NCBI GenBank assembly: GCA_002496385.1
Contig: DAJR01000022.1
Span: 1 to 58,832, forward strand
Reading direction: 5' to 3'
Length of the DNA: 58,832 bases
DNA from: Methanomassiliicoccales archaeon UBA147
GTDB taxonomy: Archaea > Thermoplasmatota > Thermoplasmata > SG8-5
Part shown: positions 15,408 through 42,700 of the stretch, piece by piece
Layout of the letters: every line of letters starts with the position of its first letter
Numbering within the stretch: the first letter of the stretch is position 1
The notes under the pieces: model-generated
Databases searched by the model: none
What the model saw: only the letters and a program-made list of their open reading frames with translations
Told to the model about the DNA's origin: nothing
Made by a program: the position numbers and the translations under genes

Positions 15408-15520
15408 CTGTTTTCGCCGCTGGGGGCTCCAGCGGCATGTGCTTCCTGTCCTGACCGGCCAATCGACATATTTCAGAAATGCTTATATCCCTTCATTATT
15501 TACCTCGTTTGAGGATATCC

Positions 15521-17236: not shown

Positions 17237-17345
17237 CCCGCCCAGGTAAAACTTATATGTATTTCTTACTTTGCAAGGGGCGGGAGGTCAACGAGGGCGG
17301 CGCGGCATTTATCGACCCAATATTTTATATCTTAATTGAATGTTT

Positions 17346-20093
17346 TTAATTTTCCTGGCAACTTATTTTTTTTATGTGATTTTCAACATTTTCCGCAAGT
17401 TCATTAGCCCCGATTTCCTTATAATAATTCTTGGATGTCTCGAAGTAGCCAATCGCACCTTTGATATCGCCCATATCCTGATAAATAAGAGCAAGATCAT
17501 AATATGTGGTTGCAAGGTCAAATGGTATCCATTGTTGTTCTATAATTTTAATACTTTTTTGAGTTACTTCTATAGCTTTATTCCATAATTTCTTATGCCG
17601 ATAGATTATCCCAAGGCTGCGAAGAGCGCCATTGATACCCAATTCGTCATTTAATTTCTCCAAAACAAGAAGGGCTTTACTACAGAATTCTTCAGCTTTC
17701 TCAAGTTCTCCTATATTAGCTAACGCCTCTGCATAATGGAACAATGACCATCCGACCATTAATCTATTACCAATCTTTTCAGAAATTGCTTGACACTTGT
17801 TTATGGCATCTAAAGCCCGTTCCCAATCCTTCAGTCGTAGGTAGGTATCTCCTAAATTATTGTATGCTCTTGTTAATTCAGATAAATTTCCAATTTTCTC
17901 TAATTCGTTAATGCTTTTTATGTAGCATTCGATTGCCTTCTCAAATTTCCCCCAGTTGTGGTAAACATTACCCATATCTATATACGTTATCGCTATAGAA
18001 TAAGAGCCACCGGCTTTCAAGGAGTGATATATGCTCTGATTATAATGTTTCATGGCTTGGTCATTTTCTCCTTTTCTCCAGTGCAGATATCCCAGCCCCC
18101 TCTCAATTTCTCCAATGCTGGTTTGATTGTGTAATCGTTTAGCTATCTCAATAGCATTTTGATAATCTATCTCAGCTCCTTTGCAGTTACCGATAGAACG
18201 TTTTGAATGGCCAATAAAAGTAATGGCGGTCAAGATCAAATTTTCATTTTTTATTTTTTGCCCCATTATTAGTGCTTTCTCATAATATTTAATAGAATTA
18301 TTCCATTCTGAAATCTCATAAAAAAGGTTTCCCAGGCGCATATATACATTTCCTAAATCAGCATCTCTAGTATCTGATTGTTTATTTCCATGCAGGATAG
18401 TTAATGCATAATTGTAGAGTCGTATCGCCTCTTCATTCGCATACCTCTCCTTCGCCGCATCAGCCGCCTTGATGAGATATTCTCCCGCCCTCACATCCTT
18501 GGCCCAATACAAATGGTATGCTAAATCGCTCAATACCGAGTCAATGTCGTCTTTGTGGAGTTCCATGATGGTGTCGGCGACCAGCCTGTGATATTCCAGC
18601 TTCAGCTCGTCAATTATTTCTGAGTAGAGCACTTCCCTGACCTTGGCATGGTCGAACCTGAACCTCTTTTCCATGGAATGTATCAGCTTGTGCGTCTTCT
18701 CGATGTCGCTGAGATTTTTTAACAGCGCCAGCTTGTTCAGGTCCATGGTCTTGCCGACCACTTCGGTCTGGAACTCCTCCCCGACCACGGAGGCGCAATC
18801 CAGTATCTCGCGCTGGTCCTTTTTCAACCGGTCCAGGCGGCGCTTCACGACATCGTACACTTTGCTGGGGATGTCCATTTTCTCCAGGCCGGTTGTGGCT
18901 GTCCAGGTCCCTTCCTCGTCCTGCTTTATCCAGCCTTCCTCGGCTAGCAATTTCACGACTTCCAGCACGAAGAAAGGCGTGCCCTCGGTCTCTCTGAATA
19001 TTCTGTCATAAAGCTCATTCTCGAAATTGACCGTGCCCAGCGTCGTCCTGACCAGCTCCTCTGTCCCGGCCCGGTCCAGCCTGTCGAGATCAATCTTCTC
19101 CAGCAGGTCCTCCCTTGTCATGTTCTGCATCGCGGTCTCAAGCTGATGCGCCTTGCCATCCGATTGCTGGACGATATCTTCCGGCCGGTAATCGCCGACA
19201 ATGAGCACCGGATTGTTCTTGGTGTTCCTGGCAAGGTAATGAAGCAGCCCAAGTGTGCTCGGGTCCGCCCAGTGCAGGTCGTCGAGGAAAAGGAGTATTG
19301 GCTGTTCTTGCGCCAATCTCTGGATACCGAGCAAAACGTTGTCAAGCAAATTTTCTTGTCTGATCTTCGGGTCGTCCACCAGGAACTTACCGTCGTACTT
19401 ACCGCTCTTTATCAGCTTTGAGGTGATGGAATCGATGCCCTCCAGCTTTCCGAGGTCCCCGTCCCAGTCCTTGAGAACATTGCTGAAACTGAACTGAACG
19501 TCGGCAAGAACGCTTCTCATGTCGCTGACCAGGAATTCGCTGAAACTGCCTTTGGTCACAACAGCTAGGTACAGACCTTCCGATTCTTCCACCAGAATCT
19601 TGTATTCCTGGTATCCGATGCTGTTCAGCCCGCCGGTTCTGTCGACATTGTCCACCATCTGCATGGAGTCCTTGACAAAGCTTCCGACGGCTTTCAGCAT
19701 CGAGCCAAATATGTAGGGGTCCAGTCCCAATTCTTCCCTGACTGACTTTGCAATCAAAAGTCCGGCATCGTTCATAAGATATGCGGAAACGACCAATGGC
19801 GGCGGGTCGCCCGATATGAGATGGAACAACCCGGCCTCCCGAAGGGCTGATTTTATGGGCATCAATGGCTCAAGACTCTCTAAAAGGCACCGACCTTGAA
19901 TTACCTGAACGTTTTTGGATTCCGCAGCTTTAATGAGTTCTGAAACCAGCCGGGTCTTGCCGATGCCAGCTTCACCGGCGATGAAGATTGTGGAGCCCTT
20001 GCCGACAAGGGAGTTGTCCAGCGAGTGCTTGAGCTTTGTTAATTCGGTCTCACGGCCGATGAGGGCAGGCTGCTGGATGGCCAGCTCAGGCAT
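17346..20093 (-). CDS. STAND(SWACOS-like) ATPase with longin-like insert and TPR C-terminus, array copy 8 (last)
   Basis: GEAGIGKT, LFLDDLHWAD, EGTPFF, TPR helices. Start MPELAIQQ overlaps the upstream stop. Lacks the conserved W..KC tail. Confidence 0.88.
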   Translation of the reverse strand: MPELAIQQPALIGRETELTKLKHSLDNSLVGKGSTIFIAGEAGIGKTRLVSELIKAAESKNVQVIQGRCLLESLEPLMPIKSALREAGLFHLISGDPPPLVVSAYLMNDAGLLIAKSVREELGLDPYIFGSMLKAVGSFVKDSMQMVDNVDRTGGLNSIGYQEYKILVEESEGLYLAVVTKGSFSEFLVSDMRSVLADVQFSFSNVLKDWDGDLGKLEGIDSITSKLIKSGKYDGKFLVDDPKIRQENLLDNVLLGIQRLAQEQPILLFLDDLHWADPSTLGLLHYLARNTKNNPVLIVGDYRPEDIVQQSDGKAHQLETAMQNMTREDLLEKIDLDRLDRAGTEELVRTTLGTVNFENELYDRIFRETEGTPFFVLEVVKLLAEEGWIKQDEEGTWTATTGLEKMDIPSKVYDVVKRRLDRLKKDQREILDCASVVGEEFQTEVVGKTMDLNKLALLKNLSDIEKTHKLIHSMEKRFRFDHAKVREVLYSEIIDELKLEYHRLVADTIMELHKDDIDSVLSDLAYHLYWAKDVRAGEYLIKAADAAKERYANEEAIRLYNYALTILHGNKQSDTRDADLGNVYMRLGNLFYEISEWNNSIKYYEKALIMGQKIKNENLILTAITFIGHSKRSIGNCKGAEIDYQNAIEIAKRLHNQTSIGEIERGLGYLHWRKGENDQAMKHYNQSIYHSLKAGGSYSIAITYIDMGNVYHNWGKFEKAIECYIKSINELEKIGNLSELTRAYNNLGDTYLRLKDWERALDAINKCQAISEKIGNRLMVGWSLFHYAEALANIGELEKAEEFCSKALLVLEKLNDELGINGALRSLGIIYRHKKLWNKAIEVTQKSIKIIEQQWIPFDLATTYYDLALIYQDMGDIKGAIGYFETSKNYYKEIGANELAENVENHIKKISCQEN

Positions 20094-23000
20094 CGGGGAG
20101 TTCCTCCAGGGCGTCGCGGCACTTGTCAATCCAGAGCTTCCAGTTCAACTCCTGGTAAAGCTTGAGGGATTCTTCAAGATGGTCCCTGGCTTTGGCATGG
20201 TCGCCCTTGGCTTTCCAGAGGAGGCCGTACTCGTAAAATAACTTGCCCCTATCTTGTTTATGCACATAAGAACCAAATGGTGAATCATTTAATAACTTCT
20301 TAACTTTTTCAAAACATTCAATGGCTTGTTCCCATTCTTTTTTTTCCCTGAAAACCATTCCAAATATTTGATTCGATCGAATTGCTTCCCAATTTGTATC
20401 TCTTAATTTACTAGTTTCTAGAACCTTCTCAGCATTTGCAAATGCTTCATGAATATTGCCCATCTCAAGGTATACTTCTGCTAGGCCAATATATATCTCC
20501 AATAATTCCCAGTTATCTCTCTTTTCCAAACTAACATTAAGGCTTTTTTGAAGCAATTTCACAGCTTGGTTAAGTTCACCTTTTTGTTTATGCGCCATTC
20601 CGATACATGTCAATAGGAATGATTTTTCATCAGAATTTTCTTTATGCTTTGATTCTATTTGATTTAGACCTATTTTATAGTACTCGAAGGCTTTATCTAC
20701 CTCACCTAAGTTTATATGAAGATGGCCAATTGAGGATAAACTTGACTCAATTATATCTTCTATTCCAATTTTTAAAGCTATTTGATAGGACTGGGAGTAA
20801 TATGATAATGCTTTTTCTACCTCCCCCTGTAATTCGCATAGCTCGCCGTAAAACCATATAACTTGCCATGTTTGGCTTTTTATGCCCCCCTTCAAGCTAA
20901 TTTGAAGGCTTTCTTCATAACATTTTTGTGCCTGAATTAAGTCATCTCTATTTCTATTTAATATTCCAATACCTAACATAATAAATGAAATTACATTTTT
21001 ATCTCCAATTTTCTTTTTTATCGCTAAACTTTTATTATAATACTGGATTGCTTTATTCCAATTATCAGATTCTCCCCACATCGCATTTCCTCTGTTATGA
21101 AATAATAATCCAATCTCAGCGAGAGTGTCTGAAATTTCAATTTCATCTCCGATTTCTTCCCTTAATTTCAAAGCAGTTTCAAAATGCAATAGCGCTTCTT
21201 TGTATTGCTTATCTAATGGTTCGTCCGAATATGCAAAATACATACCACCAAGATTATTATGTGCACGAGCTATCTCCCTATTATCTTGTATTTTAAGTGC
21301 CATTTGTAATTCCGCATAGTATATCTCGCGTCTTTGATTCCAGCTATCTCGTGAATTGCAATAAATTCCATCTCCCTTAGTACCTAATAATCTCGCAACC
21401 TCAACACAATCTTCTCCATTTAAAAGGGCCAGGCCTTTCTCACACTCATCTTGCATAGCGTCTCTTTTATCTTGGGAACCATATGTTTTTGCTATTTTAC
21501 AATGTAATCCCGCCTTTCTTTCTAAATTAGTTTCGAATTTGATTGCATTTTGATAATTTTCTAATGCTTTGTCCGGCTCGCTGATTAGCTTGTGGATATC
21601 CCCCAATTGCTCATGCGCCCTCTTCCTCATCTCCTTATCGTCCACCACCTCCAGCGCATAATTGTAAAACCTTATCGCCTCCTCATTCGCATACTTCTCC
21701 TTCGCCGCCTCCGCCGCCTTGATGAGGTACTCCCCGGCCTTCTCATCCTTCGCCTTGTAATAATGCATGGCCAGCTCGCTCAGCACCGATTCCGGGTCGT
21801 CCTTGTGCAACTCGGCAATCGAATCCGCGACCAGCCTGTGGTATTCCACCTTCAACTCGTCGATGATCTCATCGTATAGAACAGCCCTGACCTTGGCATG
21901 ATCGAACCTGAATTTTTTCTCCATGGAATGGATTAACTTATGGGTTTTTTCGATGTCGCTGAGATTCTTTAACAGCGCCAGCTTATTCAGGTCCATGGTC
22001 TTGCCGACGATGTCGGTCCGGAACTCCTCGCCCACCACTGACGCGCAATCCAGTATCTCGCGCTGGTCCTTTTTCAACCGGTCCAGGCGGCGCTTCACGA
22101 CATCGTACACTTTGCTGGGGATGTCCATCTTATCGAGGCCGGTCGTTGCTGTCCAGGTGCCGGAATCGTCCTGCTTGATCCAGCCTTCCTCGGCCAGCAG
22201 CTTCACGACCTCCAGCACGAAGAACGGCGTGCCCTCGGTCTCCTTGTATATTTTTTCGTACAGGTCCGGACTGAAACTGCTCTTGCCCAGCGTTGTGTTG
22301 ACCAGCTCCTCAGTCCCGGCCCGGTCCAGCCTGGTCAGCTCTATCTTGCCGAGCAAATCCTCCCTGGTCATGTTCTGCATGACAACATCCAGTTGATGTG
22401 GTTTTCCGTCCGATTGCTGGACTATGTCCTCGGGCCTGTAATCCCCGACTATCAGGACTTTGTCGCTCCTTGTGTTTCTCGCGAGGTAATTCACCAGGCT
22501 CAGGGTGCTCGGGTCGGCCCATTGCAGGTCGTCGAGGAACAGCAGCAGGGGCCTGTCTGCGGACAATCTCTGAACCCCGAGCAGAACGTTATCGAATACG
22601 TTCTCCTGGCGTATCCTTGGGTCGTCCACCAAGAATTTACCGTCGTACTTACCGCTGGTAATCAGCCTGGAGATTATGGGCTTGATGCCGCTGACCTTGC
22701 CCAGGTCCCCGTCCCAACCCTTCAGGATATTGTCGAAATTGGTATGCACGTCTGCTAGGGCGTTCTTCATGTCGCCGACCAGGAATTCGCTCATGCTGCC
22801 TTTGATGACCGCTGCCAGGCTGAGGCCGCCCGATTGCTCGATCAGTATCTTGTATTCCTTGTAACCGAGAATGTTCAGGCCGCCTGGCCTTTCATCTTGC
22901 TCCACAAGGCGCATCGAGTCCCTGACGAAGCTCCCCACCGCGGTCAGCATGGAACCGAAGATGTCCGGGTCCAGGCCAAGCTCTTCTCTTTCCGCCTTGG

Positions 23001-23343
23001 CGATGGGGAGGCCGGCCTCGTTGGTCAGATACGCGGAGACAAGAAGGGGCGGCGGATCCCCGGAGATGAGGTGGAACAAGCCAGACTCCCGAAGCGCGGT
23101 CTTTATGGGCATCAGCGGCTCAAGGCTTTCGAGGAGGCATCTGCATGGGATTATCTGGGCATTCTTCGAAATAGCGGCATTGAAAAGCTCGGAAGCCAGC
23201 CGGGTCTTGCCTATCCCGGCTTCCCCGGCGATGAAGATTGTCGAACCTTTGCCTGCGATGGCATCGTCCAGGTATTGCTTCAGTTTGGTTAATTCAGCGT
23301 CGCGGCCGATGAGGGCAGGCTGGCGCAAAGCTAACTCTTCCAT
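20086..23343 (-). CDS. STAND ATPase-longin-TPR, array copy 7
   Basis: Same motifs. Start taken at MEELALRQ (GTG 23352 is an alternative). Ends WIDKCRDALEELPDA. Confidence 0.88.
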   Translation of the reverse strand: MEELALRQPALIGRDAELTKLKQYLDDAIAGKGSTIFIAGEAGIGKTRLASELFNAAISKNAQIIPCRCLLESLEPLMPIKTALRESGLFHLISGDPPPLLVSAYLTNEAGLPIAKAEREELGLDPDIFGSMLTAVGSFVRDSMRLVEQDERPGGLNILGYKEYKILIEQSGGLSLAAVIKGSMSEFLVGDMKNALADVHTNFDNILKGWDGDLGKVSGIKPIISRLITSGKYDGKFLVDDPRIRQENVFDNVLLGVQRLSADRPLLLFLDDLQWADPSTLSLVNYLARNTRSDKVLIVGDYRPEDIVQQSDGKPHQLDVVMQNMTREDLLGKIELTRLDRAGTEELVNTTLGKSSFSPDLYEKIYKETEGTPFFVLEVVKLLAEEGWIKQDDSGTWTATTGLDKMDIPSKVYDVVKRRLDRLKKDQREILDCASVVGEEFRTDIVGKTMDLNKLALLKNLSDIEKTHKLIHSMEKKFRFDHAKVRAVLYDEIIDELKVEYHRLVADSIAELHKDDPESVLSELAMHYYKAKDEKAGEYLIKAAEAAKEKYANEEAIRFYNYALEVVDDKEMRKRAHEQLGDIHKLISEPDKALENYQNAIKFETNLERKAGLHCKIAKTYGSQDKRDAMQDECEKGLALLNGEDCVEVARLLGTKGDGIYCNSRDSWNQRREIYYAELQMALKIQDNREIARAHNNLGGMYFAYSDEPLDKQYKEALLHFETALKLREEIGDEIEISDTLAEIGLLFHNRGNAMWGESDNWNKAIQYYNKSLAIKKKIGDKNVISFIMLGIGILNRNRDDLIQAQKCYEESLQISLKGGIKSQTWQVIWFYGELCELQGEVEKALSYYSQSYQIALKIGIEDIIESSLSSIGHLHINLGEVDKAFEYYKIGLNQIESKHKENSDEKSFLLTCIGMAHKQKGELNQAVKLLQKSLNVSLEKRDNWELLEIYIGLAEVYLEMGNIHEAFANAEKVLETSKLRDTNWEAIRSNQIFGMVFREKKEWEQAIECFEKVKKLLNDSPFGSYVHKQDRGKLFYEYGLLWKAKGDHAKARDHLEESLKLYQELNWKLWIDKCRDALEELPDA

Positions 23344-23474
23344 GTCAATCACTGGAAGGTGTAAAGAACACGGATGTTAAAAGGGTTTCTGAGGGGAACT
23401 ATGTGGCGGGAAATCAAGGCATCGGGCATCTCTTCCTCATAGTCCCCTGAGCGCTATCACGATGCAGTGAAGAA

Positions 23475-24620
23475 TTAGCCCATTTTTTTCTGGACGAATG
23501 CTTTGAACAAAGGGTGAAACAATCGGTATTTGCCTCTGGACGTTCTCAGGACAATTTCCTTTTCTACAAGCCTGGTTAGGTGCGTGCCCCTCTTCGACAT
23601 TTTTGCGCGAGACTGGATCTCAGAAAATGACAGCGTATCTTCTTTGCTCTTAGCAAAAGCAAACAATATCTTCTTCTCTTCTTCCGATGCCCGGTCCAAC
23701 ATGGGCCCGAAAATGTCGTTTCCCAGAATATCTACAATTACTGGCATGATTGCGCTAAGCTTCTTCGGGGTCAATTTTCCTTTTCCGTTCAGCTCCCGAA
23801 AGGCAGAGAAGCATACTGCTTTCAGGATGTATGGGTGGCCCTCGCTGAGGCGGTGGATTTCGGCCTGGGCTTCCTTTGATATGCTGAAATCGGAAATCTC
23901 CCTGATGGGCAATGTCATCGCTTCCGCGCTTTCCTGTTCCGTGAACTCTTCGAGAGTTATCCGGCGGAAGAACCTGGCAGTCGGAGAATATAGTTTGGCC
24001 GATGTGTCATAAAAAATCTTCTTCCCGCTGAGAATGGCCATAATTTTGCATCCGCTTCTCGGAAGCGCCTGGAAAACATTCCTGATAGTCTCGACCACCT
24101 TGAAGAGTTCCTGCTTATCCAGAAACTCCAGGTTATCGATCATTATGATGACTATCCGGTCCTTATCGGCTATGGCTTCCCACAATGATTGCAAGGTTGA
24201 TTCGAAACGTATCGGTGTGTACCCGGCATTTCCCTCGTTCTGTTCAGCGATCCGGTCCAGCCGGGGAGATTTCATCTCTCGGATGCCTCCAGCAGGCAAA
24301 CCGAGTTTGGGATATTCGCGTAATATCTGGTGGAGAAACTTCTGTACAATGGCATGAAGGACTGCATCGGATGTTTGGCCGCTTTGCACATCAATGATGA
24401 AGGAGATTGCACCGAATTCTTTTGAAGCGATTTCCTGGGCCTTCAGGAGGAGCGCGGTCTTCCCGATTCCCCACTCACCGACCACTGCGATATTCAGAGA
24501 CTTTGCATGTGAAGTGTACTTGAATGCTTCCACCATACTCTGGAGAACCTGTTTTCTTCCCGCAAAATTAGGGGGTTCGACGGGATATGCCGGCATATAT
24601 GGATTGATGGTATCGAGCAT
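23475..24620 (-). CDS. Stand-alone AAA/STAND-like ATPase with C-terminal winged helix (unrelated to array copies)
   Basis: NPY..P..FAGR, GEWGIGKT, IMIDNLE, SEGHPY, C-terminal GKYRLFHPLF wHTH-type end. Confidence 0.8.
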   Translation of the reverse strand: MLDTINPYMPAYPVEPPNFAGRKQVLQSMVEAFKYTSHAKSLNIAVVGEWGIGKTALLLKAQEIASKEFGAISFIIDVQSGQTSDAVLHAIVQKFLHQILREYPKLGLPAGGIREMKSPRLDRIAEQNEGNAGYTPIRFESTLQSLWEAIADKDRIVIIMIDNLEFLDKQELFKVVETIRNVFQALPRSGCKIMAILSGKKIFYDTSAKLYSPTARFFRRITLEEFTEQESAEAMTLPIREISDFSISKEAQAEIHRLSEGHPYILKAVCFSAFRELNGKGKLTPKKLSAIMPVIVDILGNDIFGPMLDRASEEEKKILFAFAKSKEDTLSFSEIQSRAKMSKRGTHLTRLVEKEIVLRTSRGKYRLFHPLFKAFVQKKMG

Positions 24621-24760
24621 TGCATAACCTCAAACTTTTTGCCTCGTATAGTCATGGAAAATGCACTCTGATTTATATATGTATGTACACTATGTACACT
24701 TTGTTATTTTCCTTTGTGTACACTTCGTTCGATTTGTTATCTTTTACTGCAATGGGTAAT

Positions 24761-24898
24761 TCAGTGTTCGCCCGCCTCCCCCGCGATAAAGACGGTGGAG
24801 CCCTTGCCCACCACGGCATTGTCCAGCGACTGCTTCAGCTTGGATAATTCGGCGTCGCGGCCGATGAGGGCGGGCTGGCGGATGGGGAGGTCAGTCAT
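24761..24898 (-). pseudogene. Truncated ninth array copy (45 codons), broken within Walker A
   Basis: MTDLPIRQPALIGRDAELSKLKQSLDNAVVGKGSTVFIAGEAGEH*. The ATG overlaps the stop of copy 6, and homology ends abruptly at ~24770. Confidence 0.9.
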
Positions 24899-27800
24899 TC
24901 CAGGGCCTCCAGGGCGGTGCGGCACTTGTCGGCCCAGAGCTTCATGCTGGTTTTTTCAAATACCTCCCCAGCCTTTCTAATATGCTCTTTGCCCTCTGCA
25001 CGGGCCTCCTTAGCCAAACACATAAGGCCCCAATAATAGTTTGTTTCAGCGATTTCTATAGAAGAATTTTCCTTTTCATATTGAAGGACGGCAGCTGTGA
25101 ATTTCTTTTCCGCATTTGCGTAATCCCCCTTTTCCGAGAATAGAATACCGCAGACCTCCAAGCTTCTTCCTTGGTAGTTCATATAGTTTGATTTCGTGGA
25201 GATCTCTTCTGATTTGGCACACAATATTTCGGCATCGTCAAGTTTATTCAGCCTAATCGAAATTTCTGCCATGGATATTAAAGCATTTATCTGTCCACCT
25301 ATGTACCCTTCTTTTTCACTCAAAGCTTTGGCCCTTTCATACCATTTAGCCGCAGTCTGATACTCCTCCATCTCAAGATATATTGCACCAATGTTATTGC
25401 ACGAATATGCAATGACACTGCCTACATTCATTTTCTCACGCAATTCTAGGCTCCTGTGAGCGAATTGTAATGCTTCGTCGAAATTTCCCAATTTATTGTT
25501 TATCTCTCCAAGATTGTTGTAGTTGATTGCCATAGCCTCCAAATCGCCTGTTTTTTCTGACAGGTTCTTGGCTTTCTCCAAATGCTCAAGCGCCCCTATG
25601 GAATCTCCAGCATACCAACAAATGCAACTAATGTTGGTGTGCGCGGTTGCAATTCCGTCTAGATCCCCGATTCTCTCCATAATTTCTAAGCTTCTCTGAA
25701 AATAATCCTGAGCTTGCTCTGACATACCTTTGTCCATGTGAACAAGACCTATGCAATTAAATACCGTGGCTAAGCCCCGAATATTCCCGACCTTTTTCAT
25801 TATTTCAAGGGATTTTTCATAACAGGAAAGGGCATCATCAAATTTAAACAGCCTCAGAAAAACATTGCCCAATAGAAGCATAGCCTTTCCAAATTCTTCC
25901 TCCATATCCGCCCTGTTTTTTAAGATATCAGTGCCCTTAACAATGTGCGTTAATGCTTCATCATGCTGAAATTGTCTCCAGTACAAATTTCCCTTGGCAA
26001 TGTGCAGCTTTGCATTCTCCACGGAATCTGTCTCCCCGATTAGCTTTTCGGCCATATCCAAACATTCTGCGCTCTTTAAATAATCTGGCTTATTGAGGTA
26101 AATGCCTCCCAGCTTTATTAGAATTTCAGTCTTTGTATCAACATCTTGTGTTGAATTCAGAATAATTTCATGTTGGTTGATAGCTTGGTCGCATTTCCCG
26201 GTCAGTTCATAAATATCTCCCATACTATTCCTGATTCGTGGATGCATTTGTGCTCCAACAATGCTCAGGGCATTGGTATACAGCCTTATAGCCTCCTCAT
26301 TGGCATACCTCTCCTTTGCCATTTCCGCGGCCTTGACCAGATACTCCCCAGCCCTCTCATCCTTTGCATGAAATAGATGGGCGGCCAGCTCGCTTAAAAC
26401 AGAGGCGATGTCATTCTTATGCAGTTCCAGAATTGTGTCCGCAATCAGCCTGTGATATTCCCGCCTTAGTTCTTCGCCCATGTCATTGTATAACACTTCC
26501 CTGACTTTGGCATGGTCGAATCTGTATCTGTCCTTTAAATAATGAAGCAGTTTGTGGTTTTTCTCTATCTCGCTTAGATTCTCTAGCAGCTGGAACCTAT
26601 CACGGCCCATGGCCTTGCCTATCACCTCAGAATGAAACTCCTCGCCCACAACACTGGCGCAGTCGAGTATCTTCCTCTGCTCCTTCATCAATCTATCCAG
26701 CCGCCTCTTCACGACATCATACACCTTGCTTGGGAGGTCCAGTTTATCCAACTCCTTGACCAGCGTCCATGCGCCCGAATTGTCAGGCTCGATGGCACTC
26801 TCCTCGGCCAGCAATTTCAGTATCTCCAGGACGAAGAATGGCGTGCCGTCCGTCTCTTTGTGAATCCTGTCGTAGAAGGGCGGGCCAAACCTGGCATTGC
26901 CAAGGGAGCTGTCAATTATGGCTTTGGTCGCATCCCTGCCCAGGCGCTTCAGCTCCACTTTGTCCAGCAAGTCCTCCCTGCCCATGTTCTGCATCGCCGT
27001 CTCCAGCTGGTGCGTCTGGCCGTCATAGGCCTGGACTATGTCCTCAGGGCGGTAGATCCCGAGCATCAACACGCGGTTCTTCCTAGTGTTCCGTGAAATG
27101 TAATGTAGCAAATTGAGAGTGGTTGGGTCGGCCCATTGTAGGTCGTCCAGGAACAACAGCAGCGGCTTCTCCGTTGAAGCCCTCTGAAACCCGAGCAGCA
27201 CATTGTCAAACAGGTTCTCCTGCCGTATTTTCGGGTCGTCCACCAGGAACCTGCCATCAAACTTGCCGCTGGTGATTAGGCGGGACAATATAGGTTCTAT
27301 CCCACCAACCCTTTCCAAGTCACCGTCCCATTCCTTCAGCGCAGAGCTATGTTTACATAGAATTTCTGATAGAATGCATCTCATATCGCTGACCAAAAAT
27401 TCGCTGAAACTGCCCTTGGTGACAATCGCCAGATGCAACTCTCCTGATTCTTCTATCAGTATCTTGTAATCCTTGAACCCAAGACTGTTCAGCCCGCCAG
27501 TTTGCTCAACATTGTCCATCTTTTGCATGGAATCTTTGACAAAATTGCCTACTGCGGTCAACATTGAACCGAATATGTATGGGTCCAACCCGAGCTCCTC
27601 GCGCTCATATTTGGCGATTAATAAGCCAGAATTGTTCAACAAATACGCCGACACGACCAGCGGCGGCGGGTCTCCCGAAATAAGATGGAACAATCCCGCC
27701 TCCCGCAGCGCGGTCTTCACCGGCATCAGCGGCTCTAAAGATTCCGCGAGGCACCAGCCCCGAATTACCCGGGCACCCTTCTTCTCGGCCTCATAAATTA

Positions 27801-27957
27801 ACTCAGATACGAGCCGGGTCTTCCCGATGCCCGCCTCCCCCGCGATGAAGACGGTCGAGCCTTTTCCGGCGATGGCGCTGTCCAGGGACTGCTTCAGTTT
27901 GGTTAATTCAGCGTCGCGGCCGATGAGGGCGGGCTGGTGGATGGCCTGTTCTTTCAT
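24895..27957 (-). CDS. STAND ATPase-longin-TPR, array copy 6
   Basis: GEAGIGKT, LFLDDLQWAD, DGTPFF, TPR repeats (NNLGEIN, NNIGAIY). Ends WADKCRTALEALE. Confidence 0.88.
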   Translation of the reverse strand: MKEQAIHQPALIGRDAELTKLKQSLDSAIAGKGSTVFIAGEAGIGKTRLVSELIYEAEKKGARVIRGWCLAESLEPLMPVKTALREAGLFHLISGDPPPLVVSAYLLNNSGLLIAKYEREELGLDPYIFGSMLTAVGNFVKDSMQKMDNVEQTGGLNSLGFKDYKILIEESGELHLAIVTKGSFSEFLVSDMRCILSEILCKHSSALKEWDGDLERVGGIEPILSRLITSGKFDGRFLVDDPKIRQENLFDNVLLGFQRASTEKPLLLFLDDLQWADPTTLNLLHYISRNTRKNRVLMLGIYRPEDIVQAYDGQTHQLETAMQNMGREDLLDKVELKRLGRDATKAIIDSSLGNARFGPPFYDRIHKETDGTPFFVLEILKLLAEESAIEPDNSGAWTLVKELDKLDLPSKVYDVVKRRLDRLMKEQRKILDCASVVGEEFHSEVIGKAMGRDRFQLLENLSEIEKNHKLLHYLKDRYRFDHAKVREVLYNDMGEELRREYHRLIADTILELHKNDIASVLSELAAHLFHAKDERAGEYLVKAAEMAKERYANEEAIRLYTNALSIVGAQMHPRIRNSMGDIYELTGKCDQAINQHEIILNSTQDVDTKTEILIKLGGIYLNKPDYLKSAECLDMAEKLIGETDSVENAKLHIAKGNLYWRQFQHDEALTHIVKGTDILKNRADMEEEFGKAMLLLGNVFLRLFKFDDALSCYEKSLEIMKKVGNIRGLATVFNCIGLVHMDKGMSEQAQDYFQRSLEIMERIGDLDGIATAHTNISCICWYAGDSIGALEHLEKAKNLSEKTGDLEAMAINYNNLGEINNKLGNFDEALQFAHRSLELREKMNVGSVIAYSCNNIGAIYLEMEEYQTAAKWYERAKALSEKEGYIGGQINALISMAEISIRLNKLDDAEILCAKSEEISTKSNYMNYQGRSLEVCGILFSEKGDYANAEKKFTAAVLQYEKENSSIEIAETNYYWGLMCLAKEARAEGKEHIRKAGEVFEKTSMKLWADKCRTALEALE

Positions 27958-30560: not shown

Positions 30561-33500
30561 TCTAGGGCCTCCAGGTCTTTCTGGCACCTCTCTATCCAGA
30601 ACTTCATGTGCATGCGTTCGAACTCAGCGAGGGCTTTCTGCGTGTATTCCTTCGATTTAGCCGGTTCGCCCTTGGATTTCCAGAGCTGGCCGAATTCGTA
30701 TAGCGTGATGGCGTATTCCTTTCGATCAACATTCTCAAGGATTTTCTCGGCATTCTGGAATTCAGATATCGCTTCGTCGAATTTCATTTGGCTGCATCGG
30801 ACCATACCCAATGCCCTGTGGCTCATACCTTCCTCGACCCTAGCGCCTATCTGCCTTGATAAATCCAGAGCTTCTTTTGCATTCTTTTCGGCTTGTCCAA
30901 GTTCACCAATTAAAATGCTTGCTTCAGCGATTTTTGTTTTTGAGTATGAGATTCCTGCTTTATTTCCAGCCTTGTTAAAAATTTCTAAGCTCTGGTTGAA
31001 GAACTCCAGAGCCTTATATCCATTTTCTTTCAGAAGAAATACGCAACCTAAGCGGTTTAACCCATAGGCAATAGAAATTTGAACTTTAGTAAAATTTCGC
31101 CTCTCCTGAAGTTCTTGTTCGAAATAGGTGCAGGCATCATCAAAATTTCCATTTCGCATATGAATTTCACCAATATGGTAATAACCATTGGCTATTCCAT
31201 AATGATTTTCATCTTTTAGGGCTTTTTCAATATGATTATTCAAATGCTCTGTTGCCTCTTTGGATTCATTCCTCATTTCCGCAATTTTACCAAGTGCATA
31301 ATCAATGTAGAATGGATCCATCTTTGTTCCGCGACTCTGCCATATTTCTATCATTTTTTCATGACAGTCTATTGCTTCGTCATAATTTCCTAAATCCTCT
31401 GCAATCCACGCCATTGTGTCATAACAATTCAGAACACCATCTAAATATCCAATATCATTGGAAAAGCAAAGTGCTTTGACAAGGTATTCATGTGCTTCAT
31501 CAAGAGCACCGGTTCGAAATAATACCCACCCCAACCTCCAATAATCTATCGCAGTTTTCTCTTTGTTGTCCAGTCGTATGTCGATTTCCAATTTTTTCTT
31601 TATTAAATCTATTGCGGCATTATAATTACATGAAAGATGGTAGCTTGCCGATAAGGATATGTAAGCCTGTGCAAGTTCTCTGTCATCTCCCAGTCTCTTT
31701 AATGATTCAATTATTTGATTGAATTGCTTTATTGCAGTTTCTTCGTCAATGAGTCCAACATACCTCTTTCTCATTGTTTCTCTCCGCAATAGTTTATTTT
31801 TTAATACTTCATCTGTGCAATTGACAAAGTATTTTTTGCCTTTATCTACATTTTCAAGTGCTAAGTCAGTTTTTCCTAATTCTGTGCACACATCCACAAT
31901 ACCAATGTGGGCCTGAATAATTTCACATGGTTTTGATGTATTTTCAAGTGCCATGCTGAACAACCTCATGGATTCTTCTAGGGCATACTCCTTGAATGCA
32001 TTTTCTCCAGTGAGAATGAGGAACTTCGCTGCCCTCTCGTCCCTTCCCTCGTAATAGTGATGCGCAAGCTCGCCTGCGACCTCATCACTATTGTCCTTAT
32101 GCAGCTCTGCGATGGTGTCTCCCACAACCCGATGGTACTCTCGCTTCAGCTCCTCGCTGATGCCGTTGTAGAGGACCTCGCGTATCTTTGCATGGTCGAA
32201 TTTATATTTATCCTTCAAGTAGTGGATGAGGCTGTGTGTTTTCTCTATCTTGCTCAGGTTCTCCAGCAACTGGAGTTTGTCCTGCCGGACGATTTTTCCG
32301 ACCACCTCGGACTGAAACTCATCACCTATAACGCTGGCACATTCCAGGACTTTTCTCTGTTCTTCCATCAGCTTGCCCAGGCGCCTCTTTACGACGTCAT
32401 AGATCTTAGATGGAATGTCGAGCTTTTTGATGCTGCCCACGGCTCTCCATACCCCATCGGTACCGCAGGACAGTGTTTTTTCTTCAGCCAGGAGTTTTAC
32501 AACTTCCAGCACGAAGAATGGGTTTCCCTCTGTGTCTTTGTATATCTTGGATAGGAGCTCCTTCTCTATCTTAGCGGAGCCCAGGGCGGAACCGACCATG
32601 TCCCTTGTGTGGTCCTGGTCTAGGCGAGCCAATTCTACTTTACCGATTAGGTCTTCCCTGCTCATCTTCTGCATCGTGTCAACGAGCTGGTGCGTTTTTC
32701 CATCCCAAGATTGGACCACTTCTTCAGGGCGGTAATTTCCAAGAATTAGAACGCGCTTGTCCCTTGTGTTCTTCGAGAGGAAATGAATCAGGTTGAGCGT
32801 GGTCGGATCTGACCACTGAAGGTCGTCCAGGGACAGTACGATTGGCTTCTGCGCCGATATCCGCTGGAAGCCCATCAATACATTGTCGAACAGGCTCTCC
32901 TGGCGCATCTTTGGGTCATCGATTAGGTGCTTTCCGCTGTACTTTCCGCTCATCACGAGTCTTGATACCGGCGCGTCGATACCGGCCAGTTTCTCCATGT
33001 CCCCATTCCACCCTGCCAGGACGTGTCCGAAATTCATCTGGATATTGGAAAGCGCGTTCTTCATGTCCCCGGCTAACATCTCGCTGAGGGTGCCTTTGGT
33101 AACAGCTGCCAGGAACAGCCCGTCATGCTCCTCGATGATTATCTTGTACTCCTTGTAGCCGAGGCTGTTGAGCCCGCCAGTCCTGTCGACATTGTCGATC
33201 TTCTGCATGGAATCCTTGACAAAGCTTCCCACAGCTTTCAGCATGGAGCCGAAGATGTACGGGTCCAGGCCCAGTTCCTCGCGCTCGGCCTTGGCTATGA
33301 GAAGCCCCGCGTCGTTCATCAGGTACGCCGACACTATCAGCGGCGGTGGGTCCCCCGAGATGAGGTGGAACAGCCCGGCCTCTCGGAGAGCCGATTTAAC
33401 CGGCATCAGCGGCTCCAGGCTCTCGGCAAGGCACCAGCCGCGGATTATCTGGGCGCCTTTCTTCTCGGCCTCATTAATTAGCTCAGATACGAGTCGGGTC

Positions 33501-33633
33501 TTCCCGATGCCGGCCTCACCGGCGATGAATGTAACCGAGCCTTTTCCAGCTGCTGCGTTCTCCAGGCTCTTTTTCAGTTTGTCCAGTTCCCCATCTCTGC
33601 CGATGAGGTCAGGCTGTTTCAACGATGATTCTG

Positions 33634-33637
<4 letters not shown>
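30557..33637 (-). CDS. STAND ATPase-longin-TPR, array copy 4
   Basis: Start MTESSLKQ at ATGA overlap. Walker B SLDDLQWSD, EGNPFF. TPR region related to copy 3. Confidence 0.88.
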
Positions 33638-36716
<3,079 letters not shown>

Positions 36717-36720
<4 letters not shown>

Positions 36721-39700
36721 TGCTCCAACTCCTCCAATGCCTTGCGGCACTTGTCCGCCCAGAGCTTCATGCCCATGCGTTCGAACTCGGTGAGCGCTTT
36801 GAAGAGGTGTTCTTTCGCTTGAGTGGGAGCACCCTCAAATTTGGATAGAAGCGCGTATTCGTAGAATACCCTCGATAAACGAACTTTGTCCCCCACCTCT
36901 TCGAGGATTGCCCTAGCTTTTGTAAATTCATCCGATGCGATATCCCATTTTTTCATCTCTCGATAGATCATACCCAGCACACGGTGGCTTAAGCCCTCCT
37001 CTGGTTTGGCACCAATCTCGGCAGCAACCTCTGCAGATTCTTTTGCATGTTCGAGGGCTGCCTGGGCATCGCCCTTCCCGAGTTTTACCTCTGCCAAGCC
37101 GCATAGATTGTGAATATAGAGTCGTTTTTCTCCGATTTCCAGGGAAATTTCTAAGCTATGCTCGTATAACTCCAGAGCCTTTCCCAACTCGCCCTTATAG
37201 AGGTACACTTCCCCTATATTGTTAAGCGATAGTGCAACGCCCTGCCTGCTCTCGATTTTCTCTCTTATTTTCAGGCTGTGTTCGTAGAACTCGAGCGCCC
37301 TATCTAGTTCACCACTCTCAAAGTGAACGGATCCAATGTTGTTCAGCAACATCGCAAAGCCCCACCTGTCCCCTATTTTCTCTCTTATTTTCAGGCTGCG
37401 TCCGTAGAACTCGAGCGCCCTCTCTGGCTCACCCTTCTCAGAGTGAGCGGATCCAATGTTGTTCAGAGTCCCCGCAATGCCCTGTTTGTCCCCTATTTTC
37501 TCAAAGATATCGTAGCCGCGTCTGTAAAACTCAAGCGCTCTATCTAGTTCCCCCCTCTCATAATGAACGGATCCGATGTTGTTCAGTGCCGCCGCGATGC
37601 CGTACTGGTCTTCTATCTCATCCATTACTGATAAGCTTTTTTCATAATATTGCAGGGCATGAACTAACACCCCCTTGCTTGAGTGGAAGATGCCGACTGC
37701 TCTGAGTGCGTTACCGATATCCTTTTTGTCTGCACCAACTTTTTCTGATGTCATTACAGCTTCTAAGAAACAGTGCAGAGCGTTATCATAATTTCCTTTT
37801 TTCCAATAGGTGTTCCCTTCACAGCCCATCACCCTTCCGTACTCAATTGTTCCCGCTTCAGCTAAACTCTTCGCCTCTGAGAGCACTTCGATGGCATTGT
37901 CATATTCTCCCTTCTTTTCGTGCGAATCTCCAGCTTTCCTTAACATCCTGACCTTTGTCTCTTTGTTCGCTGTTGATTTGCTCGCTCTCAGGAAGTTTTC
38001 AATGGCATTGTCATACTTGCCCATGCGTACCTGTATATCCCCCAACTTCTCAAGGACATTAACCTTCTCCTCGTCAACGAAAAACTCAAGGGCGTTTCTG
38101 TAAAACCGCAACGCTTCCTCGTTGGCGGACTTCTCTCCCGCACTGTCCCCGGCTTTTAGCAGAAATTTTCCTGCTTTCACATCCCTAGCTTCGAAATAAT
38201 GGTAGGCCAATTCGTTCACGATCTGGTTTGGATTGTCCTTGTGAATCTCAGCGATTGTGTCGGCTATCAACCTGTGGTATTCTCGTCTCAACTCTTCCCC
38301 TACGCTATTATACAGAACCTCTCTTATTTTAGAATGGTCAAATTTGTATTTGTCTTTGAAATAATGGAGCAGCTTATGGGTTTTTTCTATTTCGCTGAGA
38401 TTTTCCAATAACTGAAGTTTATTCTGGCCCATGACCTTGCCCACAACTTCGGAGTGGAACTCTTCACCAACTACGCTGGAGCATTCAAGCACCTTTCTAT
38501 GCTCCTTCATCAGTCGGTCCAAACGCCTTTTTATTACATCATAGACCTTGCTCGGAAGGTCTAGCTTATCCAAATCCTTCATCAGTGTCCAGGCACCGGC
38601 ATTGTCTCGGGTGATGACACTCTCTTCAGCCAGTAGCTTAATGACCTCCAGCACGAAGAACGGCGTGCCCTCGGTTTCTTTGTGAATTTTCTCGAAAAAG
38701 GCGGGTTCGAAGCGAGATATGGCCAGGACATTGTTTACCAGTGATTCAGTGTCTGTTTTGTCCAGACGTTTCAGGTCAAGTAAAATAAATAAATCTTCCC
38801 GGTTCATTTTCTGCATTGCCGTTTCGAGTTGATGCGCTTTTCCGTCAAATCCCAGCATGATGTCCTCTGGCCTGTATGTTCCAAGAATCAATAGCTTGTC
38901 TTTTCTGGTGTTGCGTGATAGATAATGCAGTAGGTTTAGAGTGGTGGGGTCAGCCCATTGCAGGTCGTCGATGAACAAAATTAGAGGTTTCTCTTTCGAG
39001 GCTCTTTGCAAGCCCATGAGTACATTGTCGAATAGATTCTCCTGCTTCAGTTTGGGGTCGTCCACTAGGAATTTACCGTTGTATTTACCGCAAATCATCC
39101 ATATAGAGACCGCCGTTTCGATATCCTTGACCTTGGATATTTCTCCATTCCAGGCATTAAGAACTTCGCTGAATTTTGTCAGAAATTCTTTTAGAAGACT
39201 TTTCATATCATTGACCAACATCTCGCTGAGTGCACCCTTGGTTACGCAGGCCAGATACAAGCCATTCAATTCCTCAATTAATATCTTGTATTCTTTGTAG
39301 CCGAGGCTGTTGAGGCCACCTGTCCTCTCGACATTATCCATCATTCTCATTGAGTCCTGGACAAAGCTTCCCACAGCTTTCAGCATCGAAGAGAATATGT
39401 AAGGGTCCAGGCCCAGTTCTTCTCTTTCAGCCTTTGCTATCAACAACCCAGCGTCGTTCATGAGGTATGCAGACAGCAGCAGCGGCGGCGGGTCGCCCGA
39501 AATAAGGTGGAACAATCCCGCTTCTCTAAGAGCCAATTTAACCGGCATCAACGGCTCCAGGCTCTCGGCAAGGCACCAGCCGCGAATTATCTGCGCGCCT
39601 TTCTTTTCGGCATCATTAATTAACTCAGATACAAGCCGGGTCTTTCCAATCCCTGCCTCTCCCGCTATGAATATGGTGGAGCCCTTGCCGGCGATGGCAG

Positions 39701-39779
39701 CGTCCAGGGCTTTGTCAAGCCTGGCCAGTTCAGCGTCGCGGCCGATGAGGTCAGGCTGCTGGATGGCCAGCTCTTTCAT
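36717..39779 (-). CDS. STAND ATPase-longin-TPR, array copy 2
   Basis: GEAGIGKT, LFIDDLQWAD, EGTPFF, and regular 40-aa TPR repeats (LNNIGS...ALEFY..SL.I.EKIGD). Confidence 0.9.
37201..37620 (-). repeat. 120-bp in-frame tandem repeats (about 3.5 units) encoding 40-aa TPR units
   Basis: tctcttattttcaggctg at 37261 and 37381. gtagaactcgagcgccct and ggatcc(a/g)atgttgttcag recur at 120-bp spacing. Confidence 0.85.
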
Positions 39780-42700
39780 TTCTCCAGTTCCCCCAAGCCC
39801 TTCTTACATTTCTCGATCCAGAATTCATTGTTCAACTGACCGAAGCATTGGAGGGCTTTCTCCCGGTACTCTTTCAGCTTGTCCGGGTCGCCCATGTCTT
39901 TCCAGAGGAGGGCTAATTCATAATAGAGATTACCCAAAGTGTAATTTATTCCGCCCGCAACTCGCTTTGAATGATTATCCAAGGCGATTTGCGCGGATTC
40001 GAACGATTTGATGGCAGAATCCCAATCCTTCATGGCATGATATATTTTTCCCAATACTATGTTGATTCTTCCTTTGAAATATATATCCTTATGAGACAGC
40101 TGCTCGCCGACCTCGATTGCCTTAAGGGCTTCGTCAAGGGCCTCTCCATATGTCTTTTCATCGAGATATAACTCAGCAAATGCCATATGTGAGCTGAGTT
40201 TGAGCCATATCAAATCAGATTTCTCTGCAATTTCACGGGTTTGCATATAGCAATCAAGAGCCGATGAAAAATTCTTTTTATGCCTGTAAATATGTCCCAT
40301 ACATTCAATGACGTTATAATGGGTGTTGGAAGTTGGATCTTTGGTGGTTATAAGTAAGCATTCTTTGAATATCTCTAAGGCTTCGTCATGTCTTCCATAC
40401 CTAGCTAGAATCGCCCCCCGTTCCTCCAATGTGCCTGCAAGGCGCAACTCATCAAGATAATCTTTTGCGATTCTTATACTTTCATCTATGCACTCCAATG
40501 CTTTTATAACTTCTCCTTTTTTCTCCAATATATTGGACAAACCAAGTAGTGTTTGGGCCTCCAATAGGTGATTGCCAATGCTTCTAGCGATATCTATGCC
40601 TTCAAGGAAATATTTCAAGGATTCGTCAAGATTTTTCTCATGCCAGGCTAAACACCACATTGACTTAGTAAGGCCTGTTTTGTCACCAATCTTTCTTTTT
40701 ATTTCAAGGTTTCTGCTTAAGCATTTTTTTGATTCTGCTATGTGCTGCTCCTCGTCTGCCGAATATATCTCTCCGTAATTCCTGTGTGAAACCGCTAGAA
40801 GAAGCAGCGTTTCAGATATTTCATAAAGGTTGCCTACTTTTTCCCTCAATTCCAGGGATTTGCTTAACATCTCGATTTCTTTTTCTAAACCCTCTTTGTC
40901 GAACTTTTCTTCATATGTGACTCCGATGTTGTAATACGCCCTAGCCATCTCTGCCAGATCATTTGCTTCTTCGGCGATCCGCAGGGCGTCTTGTGCATCC
41001 TCCCGGCATTTGTCCGTCTTGTTCGTCAGCATCTCAGCCCAGGCCTTGACATTGAGCAGTCTAGCTTGCTGGATGCATCTATCCTCTCCCAGGGTGGCTA
41101 TTGCCTTGTCGCACTCTACAACTGACTCGGCAAATCTGCCAAACTTGTTGTACATGTCGGCGACCTTCCTGTGCAGGTCGGCTTTCTTTCTGCCGTCCGT
41201 CTCTTTTTCAATCAAGGAGTAGTAGCATTTGAGTGCATTATCTAGGTCGCTGGTGAGCGAGTAGATGTCCCCCAGCCTCTCATTGACAATTTTTATTTTC
41301 TCATCATCCTCAAGAACCGTCAGGGCTTTGTTGTAATACCTGATGGCCTCGTCATTCGCATATGCTCCCATTGCGGCATCGGCGGATTTGATTAAATATT
41401 CCGCTGCCTTCGCGTCTTTCGCCTCATAATAATGGTGGGCAAGCGCATTCAGGGCTTCATCCGGATTGTCCCTGTGCAGCTCGGCAATAGTGTCCGCCAC
41501 AAGCTTATGGTACTCCTGCTTCAGTTCGTCCATTATCCCGTTGTACAGCACCTCTCTGATCTTTGCATGGTCGAACTTGTATTTTTTCTGATAAGAGTGA
41601 ATCAGCCGGTGCGTTTTTTCAACATCGCTCAGATTCTCAAGGAGCTGGATTTTATTGAGGCCAACGACCTTGCCCACGACGTCCGACTGAAATTCCTCCC
41701 CGACGACCGATGCGCAGTCCAGGATCTTCTTCTGCTCCTTCATCAGGCGGTCCAGCCGCCGCTTGATAACATCGTAGACCTTTGACGGAATGTCCATCTT
41801 CTCCAGGCCCGCGGTGGCGTTCCAGACTCCCTTCTTGTCCTGTTTGATCCAGCCCTCCTCGGCCAGCAATTTAACGACTTCCAGCACGAAGAACGGCGTG
41901 CCCTCGGTCTCCCTGAATATTCTGTCATAAAGCTCGTTCTCGAAATTGACCGTGCCCAGCGTCGTCCTGACCAGGTCCTCGGTTCCTTTCCTGTCCAGCC
42001 TGTCGAGCTCTATCTTCTCCAGCAGGTCCTCCCTTGTCATGTTCTGCATCGCGGTCTCAAGCTGATGCGCCTTGCCATCCGATTGCTGGACTATGTCCTC
42101 CGGCCTGTAATCGCCGACAATGAGCACCGGATTGTTCTTGGTGTTCCTGGCAAGGTAATGAAGCAGTCCCAGTGTGCTGGGGTCCGCCCAGTGCAGGTCG
42201 TCGAGGAACAGCAACAATGACCTATCTGCGGACAATCTCTGGATTCCCATCAGCACATTGTCGAACACGTTCTCCTGGCGTATCCTGGGGTCGTCCACCA
42301 GGAACTTGCCGTCGTACTTGCCGCTGCTAATCAATCTGGAGATTATGGGCTTGATGCCGCTGACCTTGTCCAGGTCCCCGTCCCATTCCTTCAGCATGTG
42401 GCCGTGGCTCATCTGGACCTCTGCGAGTATGTTTTTCATGTCCCCGACCAGGAATTCACTGAGGCTTCCTTTTGTCACGGCGGCCAGGAATATACCCGCG
42501 GATTCTTCGACGATGATTTTGTACTCCTGGTATCCGAGTATGTTGATGCCGCCGGTTCTGTCAACATTGTCAATTTTATGCATGGAATCCTTGACGAAGT
42601 TGCCGACGCCCTTGAGCATCCCGGCAAAGATGTCCGGGTCCAGGCCGAGCTGCTCCCTCTCCGCCTTGGCCAACAGGAGACCGGCGTCATTGGTCATGTA

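Follow-up and report, generated by a model that had tools for sequence, protein, structure and literature searches.

Eight paralogous genes for signalling ATPases form a tandem array in a 58,832-nucleotide stretch of DNA from Methanomassiliicoccales archaeon UBA147 (assembly GCA_002496385.1, contig DAJR01000022.1), referred to here as the window. The genes, termed c1 to c8 in the direction of transcription, occupy positions 17346-43012 on the minus strand and comprise 877-1088 codons each. We consider the array to be an old, lineage-specific group of genes that evolves by birth and death in the manner of NLR loci and has maintained a compositional mosaic for a long time; we give this reading a rough probability of 0.55. 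An initial annotation of the window had proposed a different origin, in which foreign AT-rich sensor cassettes are swapped in between conserved GC-rich blocks that act as homology arms. The window lies on contig C19 of the source genome, a metagenome-assembled genome (MAG) of 66 contigs, 2.0 Mb and 54% GC.

The encoded proteins share a single architecture. All eight match Pfam AAA_16 (PF13191) with 78-88 bits against a cut-off of 32.6, in two pieces separated by an insert of about 170 residues that lies between Walker A and Walker B. Both motifs (GEAGIGKT and LLFLDDLQWAD) are present in 8/8 copies. The NTPase begins at about residue 10 and is followed by TPR_12 and TPR_MalT repeats, with TPR_12 E-values of 1.9e-29 to 1.7e-58. 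A Pfam scan of the array proteins returned only AAA_16 and TPR domains and no effector domain. In NCBIfam the proteins match best to AfsR and to a TOMM kinase/cyclase fusion, in the ATPase-TPR part of the latter, with LuxR-type signalling ATPases also near. PADLOC yielded no fitting defence NTPase model, only generic TPR models and a 17-bit match to mad8. The genes thus appear to be signal-transduction STAND NTPases of the AAA_16/MalT-like clade, a family with about 20 copies in the source genome and 10-20 in each relative of the same order.

The mosaic is most evident in the GC content of third codon positions (GC3). In bins of 50 codons, GC3 is 0.65-0.85 over the first ~550 codons; the TPR half has only 0.24-0.45, and higher values recur at the very end of the gene. 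A two-change-point likelihood fit on GC3 was used to place the switches, and the higher coordinate of each AT-rich segment given below is the fitted 5' switch. The sharpest mosaic is that of c7 (20086-23352, 1088 aa), whose AT-rich segment (20250-21570) has a GC3 of 0.25 inside and 0.76 outside. The corresponding inside and outside values are 0.29 and 0.68 for c4 (30557-33667; segment 30856-31951, then a GC-rich C-terminal part of 99 codons), 0.32 and 0.70 for the chimeric c8 (17346-20129; block ~17322-18443), 0.34 and 0.71 for c5 (27954-30587, 877 aa; segment 28025-28823), and 0.36 and 0.72 for c3 (33634-36750, a 1038-aa open reading frame (ORF); segment 33714-35103, with a GC-rich tail of 26 codons). 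They are 0.41 and 0.73 for c1 (39776-43012, 1078 aa, an AAA_16 NTPase with the inserted domain plus TPR; segment ~39913-40972, GC-rich tail 39776-39912) and 0.45 and 0.71 for c6 (24895-27957, 1020 aa; a weaker shift over ~24951-26586 with a weak 5' switch, GC-rich tail of 18 codons). In c5 the AT-rich segment includes a non-TPR stretch and the TPR region is shortened. In c3 an ATG overlapping the c2 stop is probably the real start. The sole copy without a switch is c2 (36717-39779, 1020 aa), for which the fit gives no real change (log-likelihood difference 4.7).

In 7/8 copies, therefore, GC3 drops from 0.68-0.76 to 0.25-0.45 in the TPR half, as the initial annotation had implied in proposing a comparison of GC3 between the halves. 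Most of its switch positions hold as well: six (40950 in c1, 35100, 31980, 28900, 21580, and 18420 in c8) lie within about 30-80 nt of the fit, and that of the weakly shifted c6 (26260) is off by 330 nt. It had placed the switch just after an AHHYYEA motif; a switch is indeed seen, but 0 to ~140 codons past the motif. Likewise, the described return to GC-rich sequence at the gene end is real, with GC3 back to about 0.7, but spans the final 18-99 codons and not 15-40.

The N-terminal halves (0.68-0.76) match the median GC3 of ORFs in the genome (0.70), and the cassettes fall within the lowest 0.5-2% of its 300-codon windows. When 224 long ORFs are ranked by the range of GC3 inside each ORF, 7 of the top 18 are array copies. 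Within the ATPase-TPR family the contrast is specific to the array. Amino-acid composition of the repeats is rejected as its cause because, in ten paralogues of the genome that lie outside the array, the GC3 of the TPR half is within 0.05 of that of the N-half; in the array, moreover, the shift is largest at third positions.

The AT-rich state of the cassettes looks old. A Logan contig from a species-level relative (L034) carries a syntenic piece of the array, comprising a c3/c4-like tail, an orthologue of c5, a c8-like chimera (protein P0127) and another copy. The N-halves of c5 and its orthologue share 78% amino-acid identity, about as much as the neighbouring XPD helicase shows from one species of the genus to another (67-78%); their synonymous divergence (dS) is about 2.0, and 44% of 4-fold sites are identical. 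Their GC3 is 0.72 and 0.64 in the N-halves and 0.35 and 0.34 in the cassettes, which are 50% identical in amino acids. A rough decay estimate, based on 4-fold sites being 44% identical where saturation would leave ~30%, indicates that any deviation in composition present at the outset would have been more than halved in each c5 lineage. By the same rough calculation, a cassette relaxing towards 0.72 would be expected to have reached ~0.44 or more by now, even from an extreme start; the observed value is 0.35 in both lineages. The orthologue (L034 586-2601) lacks both TPR and tail, stopping after the non-TPR stretch at 671 aa, and its end overlaps the next gene's start; the copy that follows differs from that in the array. 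The non-TPR domain is AT-rich in both organisms and missing from 21 further genomes of the order; a search for the c5 cassette in 22 genomes of the order gave nothing close.

Comparisons between copies give the same picture. Outside their converted tract, c3 and c4 differ by a dS of 1.57, and both cassettes have a GC3 of 0.35-0.36. The cassettes of c1, c7 and P0002, a partial protein from another Thermoplasmata MAG, represent a single collinear type that is AT-rich in all three; in P0002 the GC3 is 0.24-0.42 with a tail of 0.55, and its neighbours are at 0.68-0.70. Within this type the GC switch falls at alignment column ~210 in c7, ~300-330 in c1 and before the visible part in P0002; since these columns differ, the switches of c1 and c7 lie inside type-specific sequence and not at shared blocks. 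Because the c5 orthologue at dS ~2 and the sister copies c3/c4 and c1/c7 share the AT-rich state, it appears to have been maintained over long times, and the view that the AT-rich cassettes were recently swapped in is not supported. In orthologues at four relatives' loci (L013, L014, L021 and L020/L019), GC profiles reveal no comparable mosaic.

Trees of the two halves point to duplication of whole genes in most cases. The N-half tree groups (c1,(c7,c8)), (c5,(c3,c4)) and (c2,c6) with short tips of 0.10-0.31. In the TPR tree, c1 and c7 as well as c3 and c4 are still sisters, on long branches (c1 1.43, c7 0.88, c5 1.71, c6 1.43, c3/c4 stem 1.09, against 0.44 for c2); the TPR branches of these two pairs are 3-7 times longer than those of c2 or of the N-halves. 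As the sister pairs agree in both trees, most copies are best regarded as whole-gene duplicates with faster-diverging sensor halves. The conflict between trees that the cassette proposal would predict is strong for c8 but lacking for the c3/c4 and c1/c7 pairs. The N-halves differ from each other by a dS of 1 to saturated, hence the copies are old, and their ratio of nonsynonymous to synonymous divergence is 0.1-0.2. Every family member retrieved matches the GC-normal TPR half of c2 best, so that this half can be taken as the canonical form and the others as divergent versions of it. As a separate observation, part of the c2 TPR half (37284-37586, residues 722-878) contains 40-residue units in direct succession, with 73-87% DNA identity among them; it looks as if they were recently expanded or homogenised, as are repeat domains of fungal NLRs.

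The stretch that can be aligned between copies at the DNA level comprises the last 50-100 codons of one gene and ~550 codons of the next, and in this respect the initial annotation, which had named the tail of the previous gene plus the ATPase of the next as the conserved unit, was correct. Nucleotide identity across these blocks is ~64-77%. With a dS of at least 1, this makes them a poor substrate for ongoing homologous exchange, contrary to the role of homology arms assigned to them; nor do they mark the points of exchange, as the GC switches differ among copies. Older exchange between copies has nonetheless left traces. Mosaic tracts are found in the N-halves of c1 and c8 (394 nt at 91%), c3 and c4 (317 and 245 nt at 91-92%) and c7 and c8 (260 nt at 89%), with a further 90 nt in the tails of c2 and c3; the longest exact matches between copies are 80-102 nt. 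Since tracts of 89-92% identity overlie old divergence, gene conversion appears to have acted between the copies, though not very recently.

The C-terminal tail had been treated as an element of the array. Its motif M.KLWADKCR.ALEEL is identical in a second, three-gene array on contig C6, where the N-halves are only ~29% identical to that of c1, and is recognisable in the single-copy paralogues C39, C28, C45, C4 and C30; the tail is thus a C-terminal element of the whole family. At every junction in both arrays, the upstream stop overlaps the downstream start as ATGA (ATGCCTGA at c7/c8), and a GGAGG encoded by the '…LEEL…' codons precedes the downstream start by ~10 nt. Shine-Dalgarno pairing and overlap of stop and start have established roles in translational coupling. 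In tandem copies the end of the tail would hence be dual-coding, specifying both protein and the start signals of the next gene, and this would partly explain why it is conserved at the nucleotide level and GC-rich there.

One copy has evidently received a different sensor half. The N-half of c8 is 77-78% identical to those of c1 and c7, while its TPR half is 51% identical over the full length to that of a paralogue on contig C24, the N-half of which is only 28% identical to c8 and the TPR half of which is GC-rich. In the tree, the c8 cassette nests in the crown of the C24-type clade (support 97/99) and has a terminal branch of 1.09, where the median is ~0.15. The C-terminus of c8 (…KEIGANELAENVENHIKKIS…) is a C24-type ending with its own stop codon. 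The composition returns to GC-rich 27 nt past this stop, in a non-coding stretch (17266-17319, minus strand) that reads WVDKCRAALVDLPPLAK* out of frame; this tail fossil is identical to the c7 tail at 29/45 nt, with a genome-wide E-value of 4.8e-4. A C24-type TPR half that brings its own stop, with remains of the former tail beyond it, shows that an AT-rich block of ~1.1 kb replaced the original TPR region of c8 and left the old tail behind.

The initial annotation had remarked that c8 lacks the tail and is the only copy not followed by a paralogue. The ORF does lack it, but a fossil of the tail is present and c6 is likewise without an intact follower. Terminal position does not account for the loss, given that the TPR half of c8 is of C24 type and ends differently, and that a similar chimera stands mid-array in the relative. 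That chimera, P0127, has a GC3 of 0.55 and no tail fossil after it; its TPR half is 70% identical to the C24 type and clusters with local relatives of that type. Capture of C24-type sensors may therefore be recurrent. The proposal of cassette swapping is thus supported by a physical replacement scar in c8, but not as import of foreign DNA into the other copies.

On our preferred reading, an array of STAND NTPases, each with an AAA_16 core bearing an inserted domain and a TPR sensor, would evolve by birth and death. Strong purifying selection would act on the NTPase half and on the tail as a short cap helix, keeping both at host codon composition, and conversion between copies would patch them at times. 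The last codons of the cap, by also encoding the ribosome-binding site GGAGG and the ATGA overlap of the next gene, would add a constraint at the nucleotide level in tandem copies, which would account for the block-like conservation of a tail together with the following N-terminus. The TPR segment diverges several-fold faster, at a much more AT-rich composition that would have been retained over long times. As copies that arose by duplication (c3/c4 and c1/c7) and genes separated by speciation (c5 and its orthologue; c7 and P0002) appear to have kept this state alike, AT-richness is probably a long-lived property of the variable segment and not a sign of recent foreign DNA. Its cause may be AT-biased mutation where the force that keeps the genome GC-rich, be it codon selection or GC-biased repair during recombination, is ineffective; rapid, sweep-prone divergence and a scarcity of recombination partners would weaken this force in the cassettes. 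Such a mutational or weak-selection cause is favored by the link with fast divergence and long persistence. In addition, subfamilies exchange whole sensor halves at times, c8 being a proven case.

Several observations weigh against this reading. Several of the switches are abrupt, those of c7 occurring within ~20 nt, and this is more readily explained by a recombination breakpoint than by a regional effect acting gradually. ORF-free DNA of the host has a GC content of 0.44 and the cassette GC3 of c7, c4 and c8 is lower (0.25-0.32), so relaxation to non-coding composition cannot be the full explanation. The converted and unconverted parts of c3 and c4 share the same GC3, and the converted tracts are not more GC-rich. 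The argument from persistence depends on synonymous distances close to saturation and on a single contig with a syntenic orthologue. Finally, some family members are AT-rich throughout, N-half included (C20 16814-19490 and C21 51934-57202, GC3 ~0.42); together with P0002 elsewhere, such genes could be the pool from which AT-rich sequence is drawn. The C20 and C21 genes may themselves have been acquired more recently.

Three specific mechanisms were considered, of which two were rejected. GC-biased conversion between paralogues as the reason for the GC-rich N-halves finds no support, given the equal GC3 of converted and unconverted parts in c3/c4 and the match of the N-halves to the genome median. 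A diversity-generating retroelement is rejected for lack of template and variable repeat pairs, the only matches of at least 85% within the array being the internal TPR units of c2 and an N-terminal remnant. Hypermutation by a deaminase or by a process like repeat-induced point mutation (RIP) is rejected as well: between c8 and C24 or P0127 the 4-fold sites are saturated (27-35% identical) without a clear excess of transitions, and dinucleotide indices are not RIP-like.

The most serious competitor is the one originally put forward, that foreign or accessory AT-rich cassettes have been repeatedly swapped in through the conserved flanks, as with the tips of Rhs and CdiA proteins. We regard this as possible though not probable, and extend the same judgement to a variant in which whole AT-rich homologues were acquired and their ends later overwritten by conversion from resident copies. 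It would account well for c8, with its AT-rich block, own stop and tail fossil and its N-half and TPR half of different affinities, and for P0127, whose grouping with local relatives suggests recurrent capture. The abrupt switches, the cassettes more AT-rich than host non-coding DNA and the existence of whole-gene AT-rich homologues also fit, as does P0002, which has an N-part nearest c5, c2 and c6 and a cassette nearest c7. However, searches of 5.8 billion (5.8e9) proteins restricted to the cassette regions of c7, c8 and c4 found no close donor, nor did scans of viral contigs and species genomes. The best match of the c7 cassette is P0002 at 43%, with the next at 32% or less; the c8 cassette is 48-54% identical to ~15 proteins of one Thermoplasmata subfamily; and the c4 cassette retrieved only c4 and c3 themselves from the same proteins at E <= 1e-25. 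The best matches belong to the same Thermoplasmata family, and the foreign donors that a database search was expected to reveal did not emerge. The proposal is further opposed by the low identity and saturated dS of the flanks, by switch positions that differ by up to 130 codons and in c1 and c7 lie inside type-specific sequence, and by the family-wide occurrence of the tail. Sharing of AT-rich cassettes across a dS of 1.5-2 would additionally require either parallel imports into sister copies or an absence of amelioration.

A more far-reaching idea, which we think doubtful, is that the array is an archaeal receptor repertoire of NLR type whose sensor segments constitute a separate, AT-rich and exchangeable gene pool that is shared by related Thermoplasmata. 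Sensor halves would be captured and replaced at the NTPase end and the C-terminal cap, as in the c8 scar. If true, the cassettes exchanged by such a system would be ligand sensors and not toxins, with AT-richness as the stable hallmark of the pool.

It seems unlikely that AT-richness is itself selected, whether because rare AT-ending codons slow or lower translation of the sensor half or because dissimilarity blocks conversion that would erase specificity. Selection of this kind would be in keeping with the long persistence of the contrast in orthologues and paralogues, with a GC3 below that of non-coding DNA, and with ORFs that stay open and retain strong TPR Pfam matches despite stop-prone AT-rich sequence. 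Against it, the ten GC-rich paralogues include the tandem C6 array, and c2 shows no shift within the same operon.

An artefact, either a metagenome chimera of low-GC and high-GC sequence joined at the conserved blocks or a by-product of TPR proteins rich in K, N, E and Y, is very improbable even for a 66-contig MAG, as three independent assemblies of the same strain (source, ENA, JGI) have identical gene order and 100% identical c7 DNA over 3 kb aligned, all 16 junctions are in frame with intact ORFs, and the shift is greatest at third positions and absent from the ten GC-rich TPR paralogues.

Among known systems, NLR/STAND clusters of plants and fungi are the closest parallel. They share with the array tandem paralogues in which a conserved NTPase is joined to a rapidly diverging repeat sensor (here TPR), mosaic conversion tracts, truncated or orphan remnants and reassortment of domains between subfamilies. 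The array differs in being archaeal, in forming a translationally coupled operon with ATGA overlaps, in lacking an effector domain, in its AAA_16/MalT-like NTPase with inserted domain, in adjoining Ras-like GTPases and in the long-lived AT-rich composition of the sensor half. ATPases of the MalT, AfsR and LuxR type and cyclase-fused AAA_16-TPR ATPases have in common with it AAA_16 matches above cut-off and TPR_MalT/TPR_12 matches; the array proteins differ from these in lacking a DNA-binding or cyclase output domain, in the ~170-residue Walker A-Walker B insert and in numbering 10-20 copies per 2-Mb genome. Membership of the antiviral STAND proteins (Avs and bacterial NLR-related) is rejected for want of a fused effector domain and a matching PADLOC defence NTPase model.

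Rhs loci combine a GC-rich core with a core-extension that is AT-rich and varies, and with displaced orphan tips (PMC7259588). The within-ORF change from a conserved GC-rich to a variable AT-rich part is shared by Rhs/CdiA and the array, but only c8 resembles them in having an incoming C-terminal block with its own stop and the old C-terminal end left as a fossil. That fossil at 17266-17319 is the one case of a displaced C-terminal remnant downstream of an active gene. Neither close donors nor orphan cassettes or arrays of them were found. In the array the variable part is TPR, seven copies have it internally and end in a conserved cap, and the next gene is a paralogue or a GTPase. The GC-rich part is host-typical, whereas in E. 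coli the Rhs core is the atypical part. With no toxin or immunity gene, the array is not a toxin system of the Rhs/CdiA type.

The array would exemplify diversification of intracellular sensor ATPases in archaea, in which the engine is conserved, the sensors diverge rapidly and halves are occasionally replaced. It also provides a clean natural case of a sharp within-gene contrast in composition that has been kept for long. Low GC content is routinely taken as a sign of recent horizontal transfer, and for most copies here that rule would mislead. The locus could accordingly be used to examine whether it is selection, biased repair or recombination that maintains the GC-richness of prokaryotic genomes. 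The tie of the family to Ras-like GTPases is of interest for the origin of eukaryote-type signalling. A small GTPase of the Ras/Roc family (16355-17236, minus strand) lies directly downstream of the array after c8, and a second one is encoded at 15479-16072 on the plus strand.

Remnants of lost copies are found within the array and elsewhere. Downstream of c6, a 47-codon N-terminal remnant (24755-24898, minus strand) begins at an ATGA overlap with the c6 stop and ends within the Walker A motif (…GEAGEH*). The array is then interrupted between c6 and c7 by an unrelated gene x (23475-24620, minus strand), which encodes a 381-aa AAA_16/ATPase_2 protein with a winged helix. The AT-rich spacer between remnant and gene x (24625-24750) contains three palindrome-bearing GTGTACA motifs in ~50 nt, perhaps a site involved in regulation or insertion. 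The stretch 23400-23430, some 85 nt upstream of the c7 start, reads …EEMPDAL… and resembles the extreme end of a c7-type tail (…EELPDA*); it may be a second, much weaker tail fossil, from a copy displaced by gene x. Outside the window, contig C34 has an isolated 27-codon family tail (45809-45892, plus strand; …IKLWAGKYRKALEGL*) and an isolated N-terminal family fragment that stops just past Walker A (48607-48768, minus strand), and these orphan pieces suggest the decay of another copy or array.

Other compositional anomalies occur in the source genome. The largest AT-rich island is a run of seven ORFs on contig C44 (~47.8-64.8 kb, GC3 0.24-0.37), probably a foreign element, integrated or otherwise. 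GC3 mosaics as strong as those of the array, with within-gene ranges of 0.43-0.54, are seen in several very large, apparently secreted or surface-type ORFs (C21 1974-6834, 9253-15430 and 65803-71920; C26 24490-31894; C48 17599-19720; C38 49833-52206), and the phenomenon is therefore not limited to the ATPase-TPR family in this genome.

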